A stretch of DNA of 64,000 nt from Candidatus Falkowbacteria bacterium (GCA_003514005.1 DOSJ01000004.1:101533-165532), one strand, 5' to 3'; shown: positions 10,270-62,905, numbered from the stretch's first letter. Numbers and translations are program-made. Notes: generated by a model not told the origin, from the letters alone.

Positions 10270-11832
10270 TTATTTTATTTCAAACCCAACACTCTTCAGG
10301 TTTTTCTTTATTCTATCCTCGAGCTCTTTAGACTGCTTAAACTGATCTCCAAGTTCGGCGGTGACTTTGGTCATCTTATCTTCAAAAGTTCCGTCGTCTT
10401 CCTCGACATAATCCGAGCCGACGTAACGTCCGGGGGTAAGAACAAATCCATTCTTTTCAACCTCTGTTATTTTGGCCGCTTTGCAAAAACCTTTAACGTC
10501 TTCGTATTTACCGTTGATTGTTCGCCAAGCGTGATAAACACCGGTAATCTTTTTCAAATCTTCGTCTGTAAGCTCACGGTTCTTGCGAGTAACCATCGTT
10601 CCCATTTTACGAGCATCAATAAAAAGAATCTCGTCGTGTCGATTGCGGAATTTATGATCGTAACGATCACGAGAGACAAACCAAAGACACGCTGGAATCT
10701 GCGTCGTATAAAACAGTTGGCTTGGGAGAGCGACAATGCAATCAACCAAACCATTCGTGATCAAGCTTTGTCTGATGTCTCCCTCGCCGGAGGTGTTCGT
10801 TGAAAGCGAGCCATTGGCCAAAACAAAACCTGCGATGCCGGTGGGGGCCAGATGATGAATCATGTGCTGAATCCAGCCGTAGTTGGCATTACTAGCCGGT
10901 GGCACACCGTACTTCCAGCGGACATCGTCTTTGAGCCGTTCACCACCCCAATCGCTGATATTGAATGGCGGATTGGCAAGAATAAAATCTGCTTTTAAAT
11001 CTTTGTGTAGATCGTTATGAAAAGTATCGGCATTCTGCGATCCAAGATTGCCGTCAATACCGCGAATAGCAAGGTTCATTTTGCAAAGCCTCCAAGTGGT
11101 AGGGTTTGACTCTTGTCCATAAATGGCAAGATCGTGAGTTTGACCGCCATGTGCTTCCACGAATTTCTCGCTTTGCACAAACATGCCACCCGATCCGCAA
11201 CACGGGTCATAAATACGACCCTTATACGGCTCGAGCATTTCCACAAGAAGCTTGACCACTGACTGGGGAGTAAAGAACTCACCTCCACCCTTACCTTCAG
11301 CACCAGCAAATCTACCAAGGAAATATTCATAGACACGGCCGAGCACATCTTTGCTTCGGCTGGCTTTATCACCAAGACCGATAGAACTCATAAGATCAAT
11401 AAGTTCACCGAGGCGGACTTTATCAAGATCAGGACGACCGTAATTTTTGGCTAACACACCTTTGAGACTTGGATTGTCCTTTTCAATAGCAATCATAGCG
11501 TCGTCCAAAAGCTTGCCGATCTCTGGTTTCTTGGCGTTGGCTTTTAGATATTCCCAGCGAGCAATTGCTGGCACCCAAAACACACCTTCAGAGATATAGG
11601 CGTCTTTATCTTCTTCTTGACCTTCATAATAATCAGCGTCAGCCTTGATGGATTTGTAGACTTCCTCGAATGAGTCAGAAATATATTTGAGAAAAATCAA
11701 ACCGAGAACCACGTGCTTGTATTCGGCCGGGTCCATGTTATTTCGCATCTTGTCGGCCAGTGACCAGAGCGTCTCTTCAAAGCCGACATTCGCACCGTTT
11801 GATTTTTTATTTTTGGCGATTTCCTTTGGCAT
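10270..11832 (-). CDS. hsdM: type I restriction-modification N6-adenine DNA methyltransferase subunit
   Basis: 520 aa. HsdM N-terminal domain ([32 protein letters not shown]), SAM motif DPCCGSGGM and catalytic LANPPFN. Confidence 0.95.
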
Positions 11833-15014: not shown

Positions 15015-15788
15015 ATGGAAAATTTGCCATTCGAAATAGATAACAATGATTACGTAAAGCTTCCCCGAAGCATCAAGACCGCCCTCGTGGACGGCTATTT
15101 GAGTTTCGAGGAATACTCAATCCTCGTCTGGCTGTGGATCAATGCCAATCCCCGGATCGGCCGAGCTCAAGTAAGCTATGCCGGACTTTCCAAGGACTTC
15201 AAAGAAAAGTATTCCAAGAATCACATCAACCGGTTGATGCTGAACCCTAAGCGGAAGAAGTGGATGTGGTTTCCCGTACAGCAAGGTCGCAGAAGTTCGT
15301 TCCATGTTGATATCGCCAGTTATCCCTTATCAAATGGTGGTTTTGTCAACATTGAAGTACGCCAGAAACAGAAGTTCTGCAGAAGTGAGGATAATATTAC
15401 AGAGCATTCACCAGCAGAAGTGCCGACAGAAGTTAGCGACGTTCAGCAGAAGTTGAAAAGCGATAAAAACGCTTTAGTAGATAGGTTTTCTTTCGGTTCG
15501 GAAAGCTCGCTCGGCAGAAGTTCCAAGAACGACAACGAGAAAGAAAATAAAAACAACCGATCGAATCGTGGTCGACCCGTAAGAGAATATACTCCCAAGT
15601 CTTATGAGGAACAGAAATGTTGGGAGATTGCCCAAGAGCTGGGAGAAAAAGATATGACCTTTATTCTTTCGGCTTTGAAAAGATACGGACTGGCAAGAAT
15701 TGAGGAGGCCTACCGGTCTGTAATGGATCAACCAAACGAGAAAATTCGGCACAAAGGTGCGTATTTCAATAAATTATTAACCCTTTAA
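15015..15788 (+). CDS. hypothetical protein (257 aa), possible DNA-binding/replication-organiser type
   Basis: Long ORF. Winged-helix-like N-terminus (YLSFEEYSILVWLWINANPRIGRAQVSYAGLSKDF) and a C-terminal ...IRHKGAYFNKLL tail of the kind seen in DnaD/replisome-organiser-like proteins (weak). Confidence 0.5.
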   Translation: MENLPFEIDNNDYVKLPRSIKTALVDGYLSFEEYSILVWLWINANPRIGRAQVSYAGLSKDFKEKYSKNHINRLMLNPKRKKWMWFPVQQGRRSSFHVDIASYPLSNGGFVNIEVRQKQKFCRSEDNITEHSPAEVPTEVSDVQQKLKSDKNALVDRFSFGSESSLGRSSKNDNEKENKNNRSNRGRPVREYTPKSYEEQKCWEIAQELGEKDMTFILSALKRYGLARIEEAYRSVMDQPNEKIRHKGAYFNKLLTL

Positions 15789-22858: not shown

Positions 22859-23808
22859 TCAAGCTAAGAAACGGAGAATTTGTCAAATTGGTAAGAAGTT
22901 AAAAATTGCACATTAGAAAAAAAACAATATATTTCAAGAACTTATCGGCGGAGCTTTGAGTGGCGTAAATTATCGGAGAGAGAAAAGATGATTTCGTCCA
23001 AGCGAAACAGGTAAGGTTTTGGAATTACTAGCTAGAGATGCTTCTTTGGTCTCACGAGAGAAGAGAGCAAAGAAGAACTTTATCTGGTAAGGATACAGAT
23101 CATTACAATTTAATACTCTGGAGAGAGACAAGTGATTTTCGATTTTCGATTGGCGATTTTCGATTTAGTTTAACAGTGATTGGTTTCTCTTCATTAAATT
23201 AGTGAATAGAAATTGGTTGCTGTTTTTTAAAACTAAAAAATGATCAAAAATCTGAAGAGGAGAGAGATGCTTCCTTTTCTGAACTGCGGGTTTGCCCGTA
23301 GATTGGATAGGGAATGATAACAAAAATTATTCAGGGAAAGAAAATCATGTCAATCGTCCCAAAAGAATAATACAATATTCTCTTCAAATTTTTGTTCTTT
23401 TTAAAAAAATTAACTGCTTTGGGAAATTTCGCCAAAATGAAGTCTCGACCATGCTTGGAGAGTTCTTCCCCCGAAAAAATGCTTTGCATTCTCGGGGTAA
23501 AATTGGAGAGAGTAGATTTCTTGAAGTAATTATAACTAATCAAGTTCGACCGCGTAAAGATGCTGTGCATCCGCGCGGAAATGTGCCGAGCCCTGTGGGA
23601 TTTGTCTGGTTTCGTTTCGAACCGGAACTGATAAGTTCTGCAATTTTCAAGTAAGTGAGTGCATCTGTCCCGCGGAAACGCGAGGCAGGCCGCTGAAAGA
23701 AGGCTACGGACGATCGATATCTTATCAAAGAGATCGACTGCGCGTGAAGGATTGAACCCCCTTCGCGTTCAGAAATTTCTCTGGTAGAGAAAGAATTTTT
23801 TTAAACAA
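22859..23808 (+). ncRNA. ~950-nt promoter-to-terminator locus without a credible long ORF (micro-ORFs plus structured GC-rich 3' half); class unknown
   Basis: Bounded by the promoter at 22824 and the stem-loop/T-run at 23783-23808. Contains four GGAGAGAG boxes, covarying hairpins, a CGCG-GAAA-CGCG tetraloop hairpin (23671-23682) and a local GC content well above its surroundings. Confidence 0.4.
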
Positions 23809-26513: not shown

Positions 26514-26903
26514 ATGTTAGCCAAAGAAGCAAAACAGAGGATTATTAACAAGTTTAAGATCCACAAGAACGACACCGGTTCATCCCAGGTGCAGATTGCT
26601 ATTTTAACAGCGGAAATCGAGGAATTATCAGAACACTTGAAGATCCACAAGCACGATCATTCATCACGTCGAGGGTTACTTAAAAAAGTTGGAGAAAGAC
26701 GCCGTTTGTTGAAATATTTGCAAAAAGAAGACGAGAATTCATTCATGGATATTGCGAAAAAACTTAAGCTTAAAATCGCTAAAAAAATGATTGAAGAAGA
26801 AGATGAAAAGAAACGGATTGAGGCCGAGATGCTTGCAAATGAACAATTAAAATTAAAAGACAGTGAGGAAGAGGAAGAAGTGGAAGAGGTTAAGGAGGAT
26901 TAA
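26514..26903 (+). CDS. rpsO: 30S ribosomal protein S15 with ~40-aa acidic C-terminal extension
   Basis: NDTGSSQVQIAILTAEIEELSEHLKIHKHDHSSRRGLLKKVGERRRLLKYL aligns with E. coli S15. The tail is ...EEEDEKKRIEAEM...DSEEEEEVEEVKED. Confidence 0.95.
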   Translation: MLAKEAKQRIINKFKIHKNDTGSSQVQIAILTAEIEELSEHLKIHKHDHSSRRGLLKKVGERRRLLKYLQKEDENSFMDIAKKLKLKIAKKMIEEEDEKKRIEAEMLANEQLKLKDSEEEEEVEEVKED

Positions 26904-26906
26904 GAA

Positions 26907-26937
26907 GTGTCGAATGACGAATGTCGAGTGTCGAATA
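26907..26937. repeat. gtcgaat-word repeat (intergenic copy)
   Basis: gtgtcgaatgacgaatgtcgagtgtcgaata. The same words occur inside yebC at 31718-31756. Confidence 0.7.
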
Positions 26938-26958: not shown

Positions 26959-27453
26959 ATGATTAAACATAAAGAGCAGAGGATTGGGGTGCTGGTGGAT
27001 GTTTCCAATATGTACCACTCTGCTAAGAATTTATACCATAAGCGCGTTAATTATAAGGAAGTGCTTAAGGACGTTGTAGCGGGGCGCAAACTGATTCGCG
27101 CGATTGCTTATGTTATCAAGACTGAGTCAGAGGAAGAAATGCCTTTTTTTGAAGCGCTTTCTCAGCAGGGGTTTGAGGTGCGGATGAAAGATTTGCAAAT
27201 ATTTGCCGGCGGTGCCAAAAAAGCCGATTGGGATGTTGGCATCGCCATGGACGCAATCAAGCTTGCGCGGAATCTTGATGTTATCGTTTTGGTGTCCGGT
27301 GATGGCGATTATTTACCTTTGATGAATTATTTGCAAAGCACAACCGGCTGTCTTGTAGAAATTGCCGGTTTTCGCCAAACAACATCGTCTAAACTGATTG
27401 AAGAGGCGGATGATTTTATTAATTTGAGTGAGAATAAGAAGTTCTTGCTTTAA
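26959..27453 (+). CDS. NYN-domain (LabA/DUF88-like) predicted RNase
   Basis: IGVLVDVSNMYHSAKNLY and VLVSGDGDYLPL are NYN/LabA hallmarks. 164 aa. Confidence 0.85.
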   Translation: MIKHKEQRIGVLVDVSNMYHSAKNLYHKRVNYKEVLKDVVAGRKLIRAIAYVIKTESEEEMPFFEALSQQGFEVRMKDLQIFAGGAKKADWDVGIAMDAIKLARNLDVIVLVSGDGDYLPLMNYLQSTTGCLVEIAGFRQTTSSKLIEEADDFINLSENKKFLL

Positions 27454-27462
27454 TAATGCAAA

Positions 27463-27531
27463 AAATTTCTAAATTATAATGTCTAATTTCTAAATTCTAT
27501 TTTAGAAATTAGACATTATAATTTAGAAATT
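27463..27531. repeat. hairpin repeat, ttctaaattataatgtctaatttctaa family (copy 2; ~31-bp perfect stem)
   Basis: aaatttctaaattataatgtctaatttctaaa / tttagaaattagacattataatttagaaatt. Confidence 0.85.
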
Positions 27532-27617
27532 ATTTTATTAAAATATGGCTTGGCCATGAGATAAATAGTGCTGTGAGTAAGCTCATAGTCCTGTAATTTC
27601 ATTGCCAAGCAGAACTA

Positions 27618-31306: not shown

Positions 31307-32020
31307 ATGTCAGGACATTCAAAATGGGCGACAATTAAACGAAAAAAGGAGGTTACGGACTCTAAACGCGGAGCCGTATTTACAAAATTGGGAAATATTA
31401 TCAGTATCGCGGCCAGGGAAAAAGGCGGCGATATTGAGACGAATTTTTCTTTGCGCATGGCAGTTGAAAAAGCCAAAGCCGCGAATATGCCAAAAGAAAA
31501 TATCGAGCGCGCGATCAAGCGCGGTACGGGCGAAGGTGGCGGAGAGCAGATTGTTGAATTGATTTATGAAGGAATCGGACCGGCTAATTCGCAGTTTATT
31601 GTAAAAGTTTTGACTGATAATAAAAACCGCAGCGCCGCGTCCGTGCGCCATGCTTTTACAAAATATGGCGGATCGCTTGGGACTGTGATGTGGAATTTTG
31701 AGCAGAAAGGAGTGATTCGAGTGTCGAGTGTCGAATTTCGAATTTCGAATGACGAAGATGAGCTAGAGTTGATTGAAGCAGGCGCTGACGATATTTTAAA
31801 AGAAGAGGAGGGAGTAACTATTTATACAAAGCCGGAGAATTTGCAGAAGGTTAAGAAGTTTTTGGATGAGAAAAAAATTAATACAGAATCTGCAGAAATT
31901 GAGTATATTGCGAAAGACGAGGTTGAGATTAGCGGGGAAGATAAAGAAAAGATTGAAAAATTTATTGATGAGTTGGATGGCATTGAAGACGTTTCGGATT
32001 ATTATAATAATGTATTGTGA
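31307..32020 (+). CDS. yebC: YebC/PmpR family DNA-binding transcriptional regulator
   Basis: MSGHSKWATIKRKKEVTDSKRGAVFTKL is the canonical N-terminus. The track start 31274 adds 11 non-homologous codons. Confidence 0.9.
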   Translation: MSGHSKWATIKRKKEVTDSKRGAVFTKLGNIISIAAREKGGDIETNFSLRMAVEKAKAANMPKENIERAIKRGTGEGGGEQIVELIYEGIGPANSQFIVKVLTDNKNRSAASVRHAFTKYGGSLGTVMWNFEQKGVIRVSSVEFRISNDEDELELIEAGADDILKEEEGVTIYTKPENLQKVKKFLDEKKINTESAEIEYIAKDEVEISGEDKEKIEKFIDELDGIEDVSDYYNNVL

Positions 32021-32128: not shown

Positions 32129-32617
32129 ATGAATAACATAATTTTAGGCATTGATCCCGGTATTGCCGATACTGGTTGGGGCGTAATCCAGGTAGAAAAA
32201 AATGGCAGTTTAAAATGCCTTGGTTATGGCACGATAAAGACCAAGGCAAATACGGATTTGTTCAAGAGATTGGAAATAATAAATTTAGAGCTTAAAACAT
32301 TAATCGATAAATATAAGCCGGATTTGGCGGCGGTGGAGGAATTGTTTTTTTGCAATAACGCCAAAACGGCGCTCGTCGTCGGTCAAGCGCGCGGAGTCGT
32401 GCTTTTGACAATCCGTCAAAGCGAGGTATCGTTTGTCGAATTTACGCCTCTGCAGGTAAAACAGGCAGTATCGACATATGGTCGCGCCAGTAAATTACAG
32501 ATTCAGAAAATGGTAAAATTAATTTTGAATCTAAAAGAACTTCCGCGTCCAGACGACGCGGCAGATGCGCTCGCGATTGCGATATGCGCGGTTAATAGTT
32601 TTAAGTATAAAGTATAA
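32129..32617 (+). CDS. ruvC: crossover junction endodeoxyribonuclease RuvC
   Basis: ILGIDPGIADTGWGVI, AVEELFF and DAADALAIAIC are RuvC catalytic motifs. Confidence 0.92.
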   Translation: MNNIILGIDPGIADTGWGVIQVEKNGSLKCLGYGTIKTKANTDLFKRLEIINLELKTLIDKYKPDLAAVEELFFCNNAKTALVVGQARGVVLLTIRQSEVSFVEFTPLQVKQAVSTYGRASKLQIQKMVKLILNLKELPRPDDAADALAIAICAVNSFKYKV

Positions 32618-32709
32618 AGTTAAAAGTTATAAAGTTATTATTAAAAAAGTTTAAGCTTTATAACTTTTAACTTAATACTTTATAACTTTACACTTTATAA
32701 CTTTAAACT
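32598..32709. repeat. hairpin repeat, ataaagtt/aactttat word family (copy 2); left arm overlaps the ruvC 3' end
   Basis: agttttaagtataaagtataaagttaaaagttataaagttatt / aagtttaagctttataacttttaacttaatactttataactttacactttataactttaaact. Confidence 0.8.
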
Positions 32710-34181: not shown

Positions 34182-34255
34182 AAGACGAGAAGTAAGAAGT
34201 TAGAAGTAAGAAGGATTTAAAATTTTTCTTACTTCTAACTTTTTACTTCTAACTT
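34181..34255. repeat. hairpin/word repeat agaagtaag
   Basis: gaagacgagaagtaagaagttagaagtaagaagg / ttcttacttctaactttttacttctaactt. Confidence 0.8.
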
Positions 34256-35553: not shown

Positions 35554-36573
35554 ATGAACAAAATTCTTGATCTATTTGATGAAGAAAAGGTAAAAGTATT
35601 GTTTAAAGAAAAAATATTGCCGTTTTATCCGAATTTTTGTGATATTAAAAAAATTGATATCAAGGCGTATAAAAAACAGATTTGGGAAACTACTTATCAT
35701 GTTGTCTTGGAATTTAATACCAGTTTCAAAACCAAAAAAGGCAAGATTAAAAAAATGCCGATTGTCTGTTCGGCGCATTCAAACGAGCCAAGAGAAAATT
35801 TTTATATTGCCTTGTCTTATTTGTGGGAGCATAATTTTTCCGGACCTTTCTTTTCGGTTCCGCATCCGCTTTTTTATTCCGATTATTATAGGGGCGTATT
35901 TTATCGTGGTGTAGCCGGCAACACGCTTTATCATCACATAAAGAAAAATAACCGCTCCGAAATTGAAGCAATCATTCCACTTACGGCAAAATGGTTTGCA
36001 AAACTTCACAATCTTTCGGTAAATGGTACGCCGAATTTTAATTTGGAAAATAGCCGAATTGAAACGGCGCTACCCGGCATAAAGCAGATATTGGCGCGTG
36101 TTCAAGTGGTTTATCCGGAGTATTATGATATTTATCACAAAATATACAAGAAATTGGACGAAAATGAGAAAAAATTTTTTGCATCAACGAAAAAAAAATG
36201 GTTGGTGCACGGTGATGCGCATCCGGAAAATATAATCAGCATGAGCAAGCGAAAAATTGCCGCGATTGATTTTGCCGATCTTTGTCTTTCGGACTACGCG
36301 CGCGATATCGGATCATTTACGCAGCAGCTAGATTATATGTGCGGACGAAAAATCGGTGATAGTGATTTTACAAAAAAAATAAAAGAATTATTTTTAAAAA
36401 TTTATTTTGAAAATTTTAAAAATGGACAACAAGCAGGCATTGATGATCGGATAAAAAATTATTATAATTGGACTGCCATGCGCACAGCAACGTATTTTTT
36501 GACCAGATACAATCCGGATCCGAGCCGAGCCGAGCCATTGATTGAGGCGGTTGCTCATGATTTAAGATTTTAG
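35554..36573 (+). CDS. APH/choline-kinase-fold phosphotransferase
   Basis: LVHGDAHPENII (HGDxxxxN catalytic loop) and IDFAD (DFG-equivalent). Confidence 0.7.
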   Translation: MNKILDLFDEEKVKVLFKEKILPFYPNFCDIKKIDIKAYKKQIWETTYHVVLEFNTSFKTKKGKIKKMPIVCSAHSNEPRENFYIALSYLWEHNFSGPFFSVPHPLFYSDYYRGVFYRGVAGNTLYHHIKKNNRSEIEAIIPLTAKWFAKLHNLSVNGTPNFNLENSRIETALPGIKQILARVQVVYPEYYDIYHKIYKKLDENEKKFFASTKKKWLVHGDAHPENIISMSKRKIAAIDFADLCLSDYARDIGSFTQQLDYMCGRKIGDSDFTKKIKELFLKIYFENFKNGQQAGIDDRIKNYYNWTAMRTATYFLTRYNPDPSRAEPLIEAVAHDLRF

Positions 36574-36630
36574 ATTTTTGATTTATGATTTTAAATTAAA
36601 TCCTAAATCAAAAATCCTAAATCATAAATT
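36560..36630. repeat. hairpin/word repeat gattt(t/a)tga / tcataaatc
   Basis: tttaagattttagatttttgatttatgatttta / aaatcctaaatcaaaaatcctaaatcataaatt. The left arm overlaps the stop of the kinase gene. Confidence 0.8.
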
Positions 36631-36638
36631 ATATTAGT

Positions 36639-40248: not shown

Positions 40249-40422
40249 ATTAGGGAATAGGGATGGGAAATTAGGTACTTAGGTACTTAGGGCATAGGAG
40301 TTGGAAATTTAAGATTTATATAAAAAAATAAACTCAATTATATTTGAGTTTATTTTTTTAGATAAAATGATGATACCATACCCCCTATGCCCTAAGTACC
40401 TAAGTACCTAATTCCCTTATTA
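40249..40422. repeat. aggtacttagg-family long inverted repeat clamping a bidirectional terminator; right arm overlaps the trmD stop
   Basis: Left arm ttagggaatagggatgggaaattaggtacttaggtacttagggcatagg and right arm ccccctatgccctaagtacctaagtacctaattcccttatt. They enclose aaaaaaataaactcaa-ttatat-ttgagtttattttttt (40322-40360). Confidence 0.85.
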
Positions 40423-41111
40423 CTCCGTCTCCATTTCTCAATCTCCGCATGATTGCCAGATAACAAAACCTCCGGCACCTTATGTTCATGGCTATTGCTA
40501 TCAATAAAAACCTCCGGTCTTGTGTACTGAGGATATTCGAGCTCGCCCGGAATAGAATGCGATTCGTCTTGCGCGCTTTGTTCGTTGCCGAGTACGCCGG
40601 GCAATAGTCGCGTGATTGAATCAACCAATGCCATTGCGCCGATTTCACCGCCGGTCAAAACATAATCGCCGATTGAGATTTCTTCGTCAATGAATTCCGT
40701 TATTCTTTCATCTACGCCCTCATAGCGGCCGCAGACTAGAGTGATGTTTTCTAAGTTCGCGTATTCCTTTGCTTTTTGTTGATTCCATTTTTGGCCTTTG
40801 GCAGATAATAAAATAATTTTTGTATTAGGTATTAAGTATTTAGTATTGTGCAATTCAGGCTGTATATTATTGCTTAATACTTGATACTTAATACTTGATA
40901 CTGTTTTGTATAAAATATCGACTTTCATAACCATTCCAGCGCCGCCGCCGTATGGTGTGTCATCGACCGTTTTATGTTTGTCCGTTGTATAGTCACGCAG
41001 ATTGATAATATTTATTTTTATATTCCCTTGTTCTTGCGCGCGCTTAAGAATGCTCTCGTTGAAATAAGAGTTGAAAATTTCGGGGAAGATTGTGATTATG
41101 TTAAAAGTCAT
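40392..41111 (-). CDS. trmD: tRNA (guanine37-N1)-methyltransferase
   Basis: TIFPEIF, DDTPYGGGAGMVM, VCGRYEGVDERI, IGDYVLTGGE and LLSGNHAEIEKWR. Start taken at MTFNIITIFPE. The track start 41126 lies inside the MITE terminal repeat. Confidence 0.92.
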   Translation of the reverse strand: MTFNIITIFPEIFNSYFNESILKRAQEQGNIKINIINLRDYTTDKHKTVDDTPYGGGAGMVMKVDILYKTVSSIKYQVLSNNIQPELHNTKYLIPNTKIILLSAKGQKWNQQKAKEYANLENITLVCGRYEGVDERITEFIDEEISIGDYVLTGGEIGAMALVDSITRLLPGVLGNEQSAQDESHSIPGELEYPQYTRPEVFIDSNSHEHKVPEVLLSGNHAEIEKWRRSNKGIRYLGT

Positions 41112-47523: not shown

Positions 47524-47628
47524 ATTAGGGTATAGGTACTTAGGTAATTAGGTTTTTTAAAACGTCTTGATAATACATCAAGACGTTTTTTGTTTTACAC
47601 CCCTTATTCCCTAAGTACCTATTTTCCT
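47524..47628. repeat. aggtacttagg-family inverted repeat clamping a terminator hairpin
   Basis: attagggtataggtacttaggtaattagg / caccccttattccctaagtacctattttcc, around aaaacgtcttga-taataca-tcaagacgtttttt (47558-47592). Confidence 0.75.
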
Positions 47629-48679: not shown

Positions 48680-48684
48680 TTATT

Positions 48685-48763
48685 AATGTCTAATTTCTAA
48701 ATTATAATTACTAAAAAAGCATTAATAAAAAATTTAGTTATTATAATTTAGAAATTAGAAATT
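48685..48763. repeat. hairpin repeat, ttctaaattataa family (copy 3), upstream of the pilB-like gene
   Basis: aatgtctaatttctaaattataattactaaa / tttagttattataatttagaaattagaaattt. Confidence 0.8.
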
Positions 48764-48772
48764 TAGAGATTT

Positions 48773-51184: not shown

Positions 51185-51273
51185 ATTAGGGCGTAGGTAC
51201 TTAGGGAATAGGGGGATTTAAATTCTAATGCGATTATTAATAATCCTAAGTACCTAAGTACCCAAGTACCTAA
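51184..51273. repeat. aggtacttagg-family inverted repeat
   Basis: gattagggcgtaggtacttagggaataggggga / aatcctaagtacctaagtacccaagtacctaa. Confidence 0.75.
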
Positions 51274-60232: not shown

Positions 60233-62905
60233 ATGACAAAAGAAATGCCAAAGGCTTATGAGCCGGGCTTGTATGAGGATGATATTTATAAACAGTGGGA
60301 AGAATCCGGAGTTTTTCAGCCGGAAAATTTGGAAAATACTAGTGGGACGTATTGCAATGTTTTGCCGCCGCCGAATGCGAATGGTGAATTGCATTTGGGG
60401 CATGTTTCCGGATATGTGGCTATGGATTTGATGGGGCGCTATCAACGGATGCTTGGTAAAAAAACCTTGCTTTTGCCGGGCAAAGACCATGCCGGAATCC
60501 AGACCCAGGTCGTTTATGAAAAGAAAATAAAAAAAGAAAGAAATATTTCACGTCACAACCTGGGGCGCGAAAAGTTTTATAATGAAATTTATGATTTTTG
60601 CATTGATCGCTCGGCCTATATGCGAACGCAGGAAAAAAAGATTGGCTTGTCCGCGGATTGGAGTCGAGAGAAATTTACCATGGATCCCAAAATCGTTAAT
60701 AATGTCCTCGACACTTTTGTAAAAATGTATAACGAGGTTGATGAAGACGGGAACAGGATGATCTATCGCGGTGAACGGATTATCAATTGGTGTCCAAGAT
60801 GCGCGAGTGCTTTGGCAGATGTTGAGGTTGAACATGAAGAACAAAAAGCAAAATTATTCTATTTTAAATATGATAAAAATTTTCCAATAACAATAGCAAC
60901 TACTCGTCCGGAAACAAAACTGGGCGATACTGCGATTGCGGTTAATCCAAAAGATGAAAGATACAAGGAATATATTGGCAAGACATTTCAAGCGAATTTT
61001 TGCGGGATTGATTTGAATATCAAGATTATCACAGACCATAATATTGATTTGTCTTTTGGCGCTGGTGCACTTGGTGTTACTCCCGGGCATTCTGCAATTG
61101 ATTGGCAGATGGCACAGGTGAATGACCTAGAAATAATCAAAGTAATTGGCGAAGATGCAAATATCAGGCCTGGTTTTGGCGAATATTCTGGCAAGAGCGT
61201 TCTCGAGGCGCGTGAAATGATCGTTGCAAAACTAAAAGAACAAGGTTTGATTGAAAAAGAAGAAGAGTTTGATAATAATCTTTCAGTCTGTGAACGTTGT
61301 AAAACCGCTATTGAACCATTGGTTTCAGAGCAATGGTTTGTGAATGTTGACCACAAGAATTTTTCCTTGAAAAAAGAAGCGCGGAAAGTTATTGAAAACG
61401 GAGAAATAAAAATTTATCCAGAAAGATATAAAGACATTATGCTTTCTTGGATTGACAATGTTCATGACTGGTGCATTTCGCGCCAGATTTGGTGGGGACC
61501 AAGGATACCGGCGTGGTATCGGGAAATTTTCGATTTACGATTGCCGAATGCCGATTTGGATGATAATAAATCGAAAATCGAAAATCGGAAATCGGAAATT
61601 TATGTCGGTATCGAAAAACCAGACGGCGAAGGATGGATGCAGGATTCTGATACATTTGATACTTGGTTTTCATCCGGGCAGTGGGCTTATAATACGCTTG
61701 GGTTTCCGGAGGGAAATGATTATAAAGAGTTTTATCCGAGCGACACCATGATAATGGGACGGGATATTTTGCCGTTTTGGGCGTTTCGGATGATTATTTT
61801 GAGCATATATCGTACAAAGCAGATTCCGTTTAAAAATTTGTATTTTACCGGGTTGATTCGCGATGGACAAGGAAAGAAGATGTCAAAGTCAAAAGGGAAT
61901 GGCATTGAACCGCTTGAGATGATCGAAAAATTTGGAACCGATGCTGTGCGATTATCTATGATGATCGGGGCGACACCGGGGAATGATATGAATCTGAGCG
62001 AGGAAAAGATCGCGGGGTTTCGGAATTTGGTGAATAAGCTTTGGAATGTGGCGAGATTTGCGATTTCCGATTTGCGATTTCCGATTGTTGAATTAAATCA
62101 AGATATGCTTACTGTTTCTGATAGATATATTTTAGAAAAAATGAAATTTTTAATTAGAGAGGTAAGTGGTGATTTAGAAGAATATCGATTTTCTCAGGCA
62201 GGTGAGAAACTTCGCGAATTTACATGGAATGATTTGGCGGATTGGTATATTGAGGCTAGTAAGTTTGCTGTAAGCGATGGGAAAGACTTTGTTTTGATAA
62301 AGATTTTAACTGATTTATTAAAACTATGGCATCCGTTTATTCCTTTTGTTACCGAAGCGATTTGGCAAGAACTTGATTCTGATAAAAAATTAATTGTGTC
62401 GCGTTGGCCGCTTGCTTTGGATTATGAAGTTTATAAAACAAAGCAAGAAGATATTGATAATTTTGAGATAATAAAAAATATTATAATTGCGATTCGCAAT
62501 GCGCGTTCGGAAAATAAGGTGGAGCCGGCAAGGAAGGTTAAAGCGCTTATTGTTGCTGGTGAATATTTTGATTTGATAAATGATAATGAAGCTTTGCTAA
62601 AGGGGATGAGGACAGGGGTAGAGAAGTTAGAAGTTGTAAGTAAGAAGTTAGAAGAAAAAGATGAAAATGAAACTATTAAAATAGTTGTGGGAGAAATAAT
62701 AATATATTTATTTGGAGCGATAGACAAAGAAAAAGAAGCGGAGCGGATTAAAAAAGAAAAGGCGAATTTGGAAAAACAGATTGAAGTTTTGCGTGTAAAG
62801 CTTGGTAATAAAGATTTTGTGGAACGAGCGCCAGAGGCTATTGTAAAAACTGAACAAGAAAGACTTTTAAAAATGGAGAGTGAGTTGGTGAAATTGGGAG
62901 AATAA
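60233..62905 (+). CDS. valS: valine--tRNA ligase
   Basis: PPPNANGELHLGH (HIGH), KMSKSKGN (KMSKS), CISRQIWWGPRIPAWY, and a C-terminal coiled-coil. Confidence 0.97.
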   Translation: MTKEMPKAYEPGLYEDDIYKQWEESGVFQPENLENTSGTYCNVLPPPNANGELHLGHVSGYVAMDLMGRYQRMLGKKTLLLPGKDHAGIQTQVVYEKKIKKERNISRHNLGREKFYNEIYDFCIDRSAYMRTQEKKIGLSADWSREKFTMDPKIVNNVLDTFVKMYNEVDEDGNRMIYRGERIINWCPRCASALADVEVEHEEQKAKLFYFKYDKNFPITIATTRPETKLGDTAIAVNPKDERYKEYIGKTFQANFCGIDLNIKIITDHNIDLSFGAGALGVTPGHSAIDWQMAQVNDLEIIKVIGEDANIRPGFGEYSGKSVLEAREMIVAKLKEQGLIEKEEEFDNNLSVCERCKTAIEPLVSEQWFVNVDHKNFSLKKEARKVIENGEIKIYPERYKDIMLSWIDNVHDWCISRQIWWGPRIPAWYREIFDLRLPNADLDDNKSKIENRKSEIYVGIEKPDGEGWMQDSDTFDTWFSSGQWAYNTLGFPEGNDYKEFYPSDTMIMGRDILPFWAFRMIILSIYRTKQIPFKNLYFTGLIRDGQGKKMSKSKGNGIEPLEMIEKFGTDAVRLSMMIGATPGNDMNLSEEKIAGFRNLVNKLWNVARFAISDLRFPIVELNQDMLTVSDRYILEKMKFLIREVSGDLEEYRFSQAGEKLREFTWNDLADWYIEASKFAVSDGKDFVLIKILTDLLKLWHPFIPFVTEAIWQELDSDKKLIVSRWPLALDYEVYKTKQEDIDNFEIIKNIIIAIRNARSENKVEPARKVKALIVAGEYFDLINDNEALLKGMRTGVEKLEVVSKKLEEKDENETIKIVVGEIIIYLFGAIDKEKEAERIKKEKANLEKQIEVLRVKLGNKDFVERAPEAIVKTEQERLLKMESELVKLGE

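Follow-up and report, generated by a model that had tools for sequence, protein, structure and literature searches.

The yebC gene of a Candidatus Falkowbacteria bacterium carries a tandem DNA array of seven-base units that is translated in frame. The gene lies on a stretch of 64,000 nucleotides (GCA_003514005.1 DOSJ01000004.1:101533-165532), which is called the window throughout this text. We consider it likely that the tract is a long-resident, slippage-prone heptanucleotide array, which is tolerated in the linker between two YebC domains and was shaped by selection on reading frame and stop codons. Its peptide most likely has no role beyond linking the two domains. The original prediction for this DNA had drawn a direct line from a repeat in the spacer between rpsO and a NYN-domain gene to an in-frame coding insertion in yebC. 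One heptamer family was indeed found at both sites and the two tracts are probably linked, but the yebC tract is no fresh insertion.

The YebC protein is 100% identical to a protein of Ca. Falkowbacteria GW2011_GWC2_38_22, a member of the Candidate Phyla Radiation (CPR)/Patescibacteria. Its 237 residues place it near the lower limit of the ortholog lengths (235-248 aa). The gene is a conserved housekeeping gene and ruvC lies directly 3' of it. The six units of the array read, in order, ATTCGAG TGTCGAG TGTCGAA TTTCGAA TTTCGAA TGACGAA. They encode IRVSSVEFRISNDE, i.e. IRVSSVE FRISNDE, while an ideal (TTTCGAA)6 would encode FRISNFE FRISNFE. The string previously noticed at positions 31718-31756 was confirmed inside yebC and encodes RVSSVEFRISNDE. 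An AlphaFold2 model of YebC (predicted local distance difference test, pLDDT, 83.5) showed a local dip in confidence at the tract. In this model residues 131-140 form a strand, residues 141-148 a loop and residues 149-158 a helix, and tract residues 137-150 span all three elements. The model is consistent with a tolerant surface linker between two domains. RNA folding of the tract gave no significant structure (z -1.1 and +0.5). The tract is neither palindromic nor hairpin-forming (z -1.1), unlike inverted array pairs within trmD (z -7.4) and valS (z -3.5). The Rfam families detected in the window were two tRNAs only, none of them at the tract.

The periodicity of the tract was compared with chance expectation. 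At a distance of seven bases (lag 7) 29 of 35 comparisons match. Synonymous re-encoding of the peptide with the codon usage of the genome yielded 14.6 ± 2.9 matches, and 29 matches were reached in none of 20,000 such resamples (P<5e-5). Shuffling the residues of the peptide gave 9.0 matches. CGA and TCG, which make up only 15% of the Arg and 14% of the Ser codons in the window, respectively, each occur two times in the tract. Since the tract exceeds synonymous resampling, the repeat is a property of the DNA and not of the protein alone. The DNA of six close relatives (L001-L006) was fetched and compared with yebC of the window. The corresponding tracts of L001-L004 and L006 are also 7-periodic (P 0.0001-0.02); that of L005 was not significant. 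The yebC genes of distant bacterial orthologs with ordinary linkers scored only 5-16 of 35.

The same six relatives were used to determine whether the linker had been lengthened. The segment from the WNF (WxF) motif to the EAGA motif comprises 28 aa in the window and in 6/6 close orthologs, with no gaps. The gapless alignment gives the clade consensus RIxNxExxIxNDE over the tract residues. In 52 of 79 more distant YebC genes the segment is 26 aa long and shows background periodicity. Its net excess is +2 over the solved structure from Aquifex (1lfp) and +3 over that from Coxiella (4f3q). Compared with the E. coli YebC sequence, a hand count gives an excess of about +4. The earlier estimate of about 6-8 added residues is thus too high, as the segment exceeds the bacterial mode by two residues and nothing was added relative to the clade. 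A linker of normal length for the clade, here 28 aa in all six close orthologs, had been named in the original prediction as an outcome that would speak against it.

The close orthologs already hold an array at the same 14 codons. In L001-L004 these codons read TTAAGAA TTTCTAA TGACAAA TTTCTAA TTTCTAA TGACGAG (AATTTCT-type). In L006, whose YebC is 77% identical to that of the window, they read TTTCGAA TTGCGAA TGACGAA TTTAAAA TTATAAA TGATGAA. Arrays were also found at this site in more distant YebC genes of low-GC, Patescibacteria-like origin. ATTTCGG units are present in L131, (AATTTCC)x3 is part of a 41-aa segment in L163 (+15 aa), and a perfect (AAAATCA)x4.4 is part of a 32-aa segment in L140 (+6 aa). 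Across lineages the segment varies between 26 and 41 aa. From these sequences, the YebC inter-domain linker is a recurrent site for in-frame heptamer arrays whose unit and length vary by lineage. In the ortholog P0037 this linker is extended by ten residues (SAQGGPASGW) that show no evident heptad periodicity, and insertions of another kind are thus tolerated there as well.

An in-frame array encodes one cyclic seven-residue peptide in any frame, since 7 and 3 have no common factor, and the downstream frame is kept only at steps of three units (21 nt). For example, (TTTCGAA)n encodes FRISNFE. Units which contain a stop codon in any phase require a correction once per 21 nt. In yebC of L001 a perfect consensus array would place TAA at codons 7 and 14; the actual codons are AAA and GAG. 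Both TAA codons predicted for arm 2 of the trmD pair are AAA, and the two TAG codons predicted for array 4 of valS are GAG and AAG. A perfect array would yield stop codons at no other positions, and each of these sites is altered by one base. Such one-base corrections indicate that the DNA repeat preceded its translatable form. Whole-unit differences were observed in intergenic arrays. The array after yebC has 6.6 units in the window (TAGCAGT AAGCCTG TAGCCTG TAGCTCG TAGCAGG TAGCAGG TAGC) versus 5.6 in L001 (TAGCAGT TAGCCTG TAGCTCG TAGCTCG TAGCAGG TAGC). The array after glgA has 4 units in the window versus 3 in L002. These differences are the signature of slipped-strand mispairing or unequal exchange.

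An excess of period-7 arrays was tested on the 64-kb window and on the loci of the relatives. Under a uniform criterion the window contains 15 period-7 arrays compared with 0.1 in shuffled sequence. Every other period from 4 to 13 accounts for 0-3 arrays, a period of 14, a multiple of 7, being set apart. Eight of the 15 arrays are located in the non-coding 14% of the window (P 5e-4), whereas the yebC tract is among those within genes. The array density is 0.23/kb in the window and 0.14-1.0/kb in Patescibacteria relatives, compared with 0.01/kb at YebC loci with a GC content of at least 0.45. TCGAA-type arrays of at least 3.6 units were found at more than 120 places in species-representative genomes of many phyla and additionally on 13 viral contigs. 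A rough estimate for a random 25-mer of like degeneracy is less than one hit. Counts of foreign arrays in open frames (92/130 in frames of at least 150 aa) were not used, as spurious long frames are common in high-GC genomes. One viral contig, IMGVR_UViG_3300042988_000801 (L223/L228), carries TCGAA-type arrays of at least 16 units at two places about 13 kb apart.

The second TCGAA-type array of the window was found where the original prediction had placed it (26907-26937), between the rpsO stop (26903) and the start of the NYN-domain gene (26959). The two genes occupy positions 26514-26903 and 26959-27453, respectively, and pnp is also nearby. The array consists of the units TGTCGAA TGACGAA TGTCGAG TGTCGAA T, ends 22 nt before the NYN start and showed no RNA structure (z +0.4). 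It was not found in the orthologous spacers of five relatives (L215, L210, L211, L213 and L216). The spacer of L215, which comes from the same sample as L002 and has a NYN identity of 95%, measures 42 nt. The spacers are only 2 nt long in L210 and L211 and 9-15 nt long in L213 and L216. As the spacer array is absent from these five relatives and the closest yebC relatives carry AATTTCT-type arrays, both TCGAA-type tracts are peculiar to the lineage of the window among the relatives examined.

The shared words also proved real, since the yebC tract and the spacer array have an exact 15-mer, TGTCGAGTGTCGAAT, and a 12-mer, TCGAATGACGAA, in common. Some common 15-mer occurs in 14% of the array pairs within the family, and the match might for this reason be taken as uninformative. 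We rejected this interpretation. The specific 15-mer holds the rare unit TGTCGAG (1.6% of units) and was found in only 1/120 foreign loci with arrays of this family; the same adjacency together with a TGACGAA unit was found in only 1/243 foreign arrays. The rarity of the specific 15-mer therefore makes a link by copying or conversion between the two tracts plausible, at roughly the 1% level, though unproven.

The divergence between yebC of the window and of L001 is unevenly distributed. It amounts to 5% over most of the gene, 17% over nt 450-570 and 29% in the tract (Fisher P = 4e-5 for the excess in the tract). Within this patch the distance between window and L001 equals the distance of each to L002-L004. 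That CGAA units are present in the clade is evident from the tract of the more distant L006. The most likely origin of this mosaic would be the import of a diverged, TCGAA-type yebC allele by homologous recombination.

In the explanation that we favour, the yebC array would belong to a heptanucleotide class which reaches a very high density in this Falkowbacteria genome as well as in further Patescibacteria, and it would occupy a tolerant strand-loop-helix linker. Many Patescibacteria lineages seem to carry arrays with other units and lengths at the same YebC site, which argues for an old array at this linker. Turnover probably proceeds by slipped-strand mispairing and gene conversion. Selection would hold the length in frame, remove the stop codons made by the units and confine arrays to surface loops. 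In the lineage of the window the AATTTCT-type array was apparently exchanged for the TCGAA type inside a patch of about 160 nt, most likely by recombination with the diverged allele. The same lineage would have gained the array in the rpsO-NYN spacer, and copying or conversion, in either direction, probably connects the two TCGAA-type tracts.

Several observations weigh against this explanation. Copy-number polymorphism of the yebC tract was not seen, as six units are present in all seven genomes, two other assemblies are identical over 20.7 kb and 24 contigs encode the identical protein. Slippage or conversion at the yebC locus itself is presumed by extension from other loci. An array fixed at six units is expected if single-unit changes are lethal frameshifts. 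The recombination patch is derived from a single pairwise comparison. The one foreign locus with the shared 15-mer, an Elusimicrobia metagenome-assembled genome (L113; JACQWW010000128.1, 6253-6281), contains the entire 29-nt sequence of the spacer array, four bases past the stop codon of an open reading frame (ORF) and followed by an imperfect inverted arm. Such strings can therefore arise without yebC, which weakens the case for copying; inter-phylum transfer and convergence fit this string alike. In addition, the tract shows the lowest variability of any 42-nt stretch of yebC among L001-L004 (2 variable sites versus a median of 11). These genes differ by 16-18% elsewhere, and all 15 stretches with so few variable sites overlap the tract. 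Synonymous change occurred in 0/12 residue-conserved tract codons, where the rates for these amino acids in the rest of yebC would predict 6.8 (P about 1e-5). Third positions are variable at 2/14 sites in the tract versus 141/220 elsewhere (P 3e-4). Complete synonymous conservation of this kind is not predicted by a neutral, function-free repeat. Candidate causes are selection on a cis-element, homogenisation against dispersed copies and recent recombinational spread of the patch.

The synonymous conservation speaks for a functional cis-acting nucleic-acid element, e.g. a site for a protein that recognises heptad-spaced DNA or mRNA motifs, with the peptide being secondary; a role of this kind has been suggested for TAACTGA arrays in intergenic DNA. 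The recurrence of the same unit families at several intergenic sites also agrees with such an element, and S1-, Csp- or CsrA-type binders have been proposed for heptamer arrays by MacGregor (PMC4679880). However, the unit differs between lineages at the same site and the tract of L005 lacks periodicity, so that no single conserved motif exists. The predicted RNA structure is not significant, no Rfam family was matched at the tract, and homogenisation or a recent spread of the patch could give the same conservation. We regard a cis-element as unlikely, and it is the main live alternative to a tolerated array. A broader version, which we likewise hold to be rather improbable, would have the heptamer arrays of Patescibacteria form dispersed families that undergo concerted evolution, exchange between intergenic and coding sites and are kept via a trans-acting factor, the yebC, trmD and valS copies acting as cis-elements. 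If true, it would explain the synonymous conservation in four lineages, the TCGAA-type arrays at two loci and the 29-mer in an unrelated phylum.

Other explanations were given far less weight. The recent in-frame insertion of an intergenic repeat, as originally envisaged, would account for the 15-mer and for all three unit variants that the yebC tract has in common with the spacer array. Real cases of such insertions exist in trmD, in valS and in YebC of L140 and L163. The gapless alignments with six orthologs of equal length which already carry the array nevertheless rule it out for this lineage, and a segment merely two residues above the modal bacterial length points in the same direction; we therefore judge a recent insertion highly improbable. 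Coincidence would mean that an amphipathic strand-loop peptide containing I, S, N, E, F and R together with AT-rich codons produces the periodicity, and that the word match with the spacer is due to chance. The peptide does carry part of the signal (14.6 matches after synonymous resampling versus 9.0 after residue shuffling), and common 15-mers are not rare within the family. However, the observed score was never reached by resampling, rare codons are used, distant orthologs with ordinary linkers score low and the shared 15-mer is scarce among foreign loci. Codon-usage coincidence without other copies, which the original prediction had allowed for as its own undoing, is ruled out by the resampling and the 73 control orthologs, and further arrays exist. 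The coincidence reading is contradicted by these data and deserves hardly any credence. A contingency locus like neuO, where gain or loss of one unit would toggle YebC off and on, is suggested by the exactly six units of the array and by the coding heptanucleotide repeats of neuO, which preserve the frame only if the number of units is divisible by three (PMC3046976, PMC13001214). The units in yebC are however imperfect (four variants among six), which suppresses slippage, and the length is constant in all relatives and other assemblies. yebC is moreover a conserved housekeeping gene directly followed by ruvC. Strain-level variation in copy number was rejected, as the other assemblies are identical. 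Consequently, phase variation appears very doubtful. An artefact of assembly or sequencing would be conceivable for short repeats in a metagenome-assembled genome, where mis-assembly is possible. However, two independent assemblies (ENA ERZ28564009, NCBI GCA_003453605.1) match the window exactly over 20.7 kb, the ORF is intact, and independent relatives from other samples hold arrays at the same codons. An artefact is contradicted by these data and can practically be dismissed.

The coordinates of yebC and of the heptamer arrays in the window are compiled in Table 1.

Table 1. yebC and heptanucleotide arrays in the window. TRF, Tandem Repeats Finder; z, z-score of the predicted RNA fold.
Feature	Position	Strand	Remarks
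yebC (TACO1/YebC family) coding sequence	31307..32020	+	237 aa; Pfam PF20772 + PF01709
yebC heptamer array, in frame	31715..31756	+	six units, 42 nt, 14 codons, I137-E150; TRF period 7
TCGAA-type array in rpsO-NYN spacer	26908..26936	+	4.1 units; TRF period 7; lineage-specific insertion
GTAGCAG/GTAGCCT array, 4 nt past yebC stop codon	32024..32076	+	TRF; one unit fewer and other duplications in L001
Inverted pair, AATTTCT-type, 31-bp hairpin after NYN gene	27464..27532	.	RNA fold -37 kcal/mol, z -12.6
Inverted AAGTATA/CTTTATA arrays, ruvC-glgA spacer	32597..32709	.	TRF, period-7 scan
Inverted pair AGAAGTA/TTACTTC, 30-bp hairpin after glgA	34188..34255	.	z -8.9; one unit fewer in L002
Inverted pair GATTTTA/TAAATCA, end of APH-family gene	36559..36633	.	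TRF, period-7 scan
Inverted pair TAATTTC/TTAGAAA	48684..48771	.	TRF, period-7 scan
Single GATTTTC array, intergenic	23134..23166	+	TRF, period-7 scan
Inverted pair in frame in trmD, residues 75-102 (SSIKYQVLSNNIQPELHNTKYLIPNTKI)	40822..40902	-	hairpin z -7.4
Inverted pair ATTTTCG/AAATCGA in frame in valS, residues 432-456	61526..61599	+	z -3.5
GATTTGC/GATTTCC array in frame in valS (RFAISDLRFPI)	62055..62086	+	period-7 scan, alignment with 1gax
AGAAGTT-type array in frame in valS	62622..62654	+	two codons deviate from consensus, precisely at the TAG sites of a perfect array

Two classes of arrays can be distinguished in the window. Single direct arrays (the yebC tract, the rpsO spacer array and the arrays at 23134 and 32024) show no significant fold. 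Inverted pairs form hairpins, among them 30-bp hairpins (z -12.6 and -8.9) that fill the spacers of co-directional genes. When the sequences were read against ORF starts, several hairpin arrays were found to stop 2-9 nt short of the next start codon. The elements at 27464-27532 and 48684-48771 have the unit order AATGTCT AATTTCT AAATTAT in common. They resemble two copies of a single element more than arrays that expanded independently.

The general idea that intergenic repeat families also occur as in-frame coding segments holds in this genome for trmD and valS. The TrmD site is 17 aa longer than in S. aureus TrmD and also contains extra residues compared with short orthologs such as P0247. 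In Patescibacteria the length of this site lies between about 5 and about 60 residues, frequently with a period of seven residues (NTQHATH); P0290 carries the repeats NLQPTTY NLQPTTS NLQPTAY SLPPTAC SLPPTAY. Residues 432-456 of the valS product add about 9 aa relative to the T. thermophilus valyl-tRNA synthetase (ValRS, 1gax). In the alignment, the Cys residues of the T. thermophilus enzyme at this site are not present in the protein of the window.

The arrays resemble several known repeat systems. Heptameric simple sequence repeats (SSRs) are over-represented in many bacteria, and slippage by 7 nt has been hypothesised to be favoured by the length of DNA that the active site of the polymerase accommodates (footprint; PMC4692102, citing a 2007 survey). 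Reports of the excess go back to that survey, and neither a mechanism nor a role has been demonstrated for it, as far as the account in PMC4692102 goes. The short tandemly repeated repetitive sequences (STRRs) and SSRs of heterocystous cyanobacteria and Xanthomonas (PMC4692102) likewise consist of a few to tens of head-to-tail 7-nt units. They occupy many loci per genome, mostly intergenic, with some inverted pairs able to form stem-loops; they vary in length and sequence between close relatives, and heptamers are in excess among SSR periods. At least three head-to-tail units, an excess of period 7 and mainly intergenic placement were also found here. Variation in unit number was seen in the arrays after yebC and glgA and across distant YebC (26-41 aa), but not in the yebC tract of close relatives. 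Unlike the hosts of STRRs, the host described here has a small, AT-rich Patescibacteria genome with many unit families instead of one to three, and several arrays are translated in frame in conserved housekeeping proteins.

The TAACTGA repeats of Beggiatoaceae, Cyanobacteria and Bacteroidetes (MacGregor 2015, PMC4679880) are similar in that arrays of at least two units lie mostly in spacers near gene boundaries. Their patchy phylogenetic distribution suggests transfer. As here, their orientation is constrained by stop codons and some ORF copies are read as a 7-residue repeat (LSVISYQ). In contrast, those ORF copies are found at protein termini or in hypothetical proteins, while the present arrays occupy internal loops of YebC, TrmD and ValRS. 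The unit differs as well, stop codons were removed here by point changes, and the yebC tract lies inside the coding sequence instead of preceding a start codon. The spacer array lies 22 nt from the NYN start.

The heptanucleotide variable-number tandem repeat in neuO of the E. coli K1 prophage CUS-3 (PMC3046976, PMC13001214) is also a coding array with a heptad peptide, kept in frame only at multiples of three. Unlike neuO, which is described as phase-variable, the housekeeping gene yebC holds an imperfect array fixed at six units in all relatives. Neither near-perfect units nor a frame-switching copy-number polymorphism was observed in the yebC tract. Rickettsia palindromic elements, reportedly described by Ogata and colleagues in 2000, are said to measure about 100-150 bp, to share one conserved sequence and to occur both intergenically and in frame in protein-coding genes. 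In both cases selfish or neutral repeats are tolerated in frame at surface sites of conserved proteins, and the hairpin arrays of trmD and valS resemble these elements closely. Unlike them, the arrays described here are short, have 7-nt units and belong to many families, and the yebC tract is not palindromic. An extra segment relative to close orthologs, as expected for such an element, is present in trmD and absent from yebC. The tandem repeats of Borgs (PMC9879509) are likewise reported to be fast-evolving, to lie also within ORFs and to add protein segments (disordered regions). Borgs are archaeal extrachromosomal elements. In the arrays described here the period is 7, which is not a multiple of three, and the frame is kept only at three-unit steps. 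In the literature searches, no publication describing heptamer arrays of CPR or Patescibacteria was encountered. Compared with the cited papers and these searches, the new elements are the Patescibacteria host, the placement within internal loops of conserved housekeeping proteins, the repeated occupation of one site accompanied by changes of unit and by stop-codon patching, and the synonymous conservation.

Some further features of the window and its relatives were recorded. The rpsO product, ribosomal protein S15, has 129 aa, about 40 of which form a C-terminal extension rich in Glu and Lys that is conserved in relatives; the S15 domain matched by Pfam reaches only to residue 86. A hairpin at 27545-27612, about 66 nt long and upstream of pnp, is kept in the window and four relatives with 26 predicted pairs, 2 of them with compensatory changes, and gave no Rfam match at gathering score. 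By likeness to the E. coli pnp leader, this hairpin may be a PNPase leader or autoregulatory element. A dispersed family with 8-nt units (TAGGTACT / CCTAAGTA) occurs at 40250-40411, 47533-47553 and 51185-51273. Its copy at 40250-40411 lies between convergent genes and has two 34-nt inverted arms around a terminator-like hairpin followed by a T-run. In L006 the same element, GCCTGTACTCGCTTGWCGGGTGAA, is present in two different spacers (10718-10766 and 15033-15078), which suggests another small dispersed repeat family.

The yebC array would exemplify a concrete route that leads from the dynamics of DNA repeats to protein sequence in reduced CPR genomes. Heptamer arrays would settle in tolerant loops of essential proteins, be cleared of stop codons, persist and turn over. 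This route could account for some of the lineage-specific insertions in housekeeping proteins of Patescibacteria. It also carries a practical warning, as the assumptions that underlie codon models and protein alignments do not hold for such segments, and short repeats of this kind could be mis-assembled. The synonymous conservation of the tract offers a testable lead to the function of bacterial heptamer arrays.

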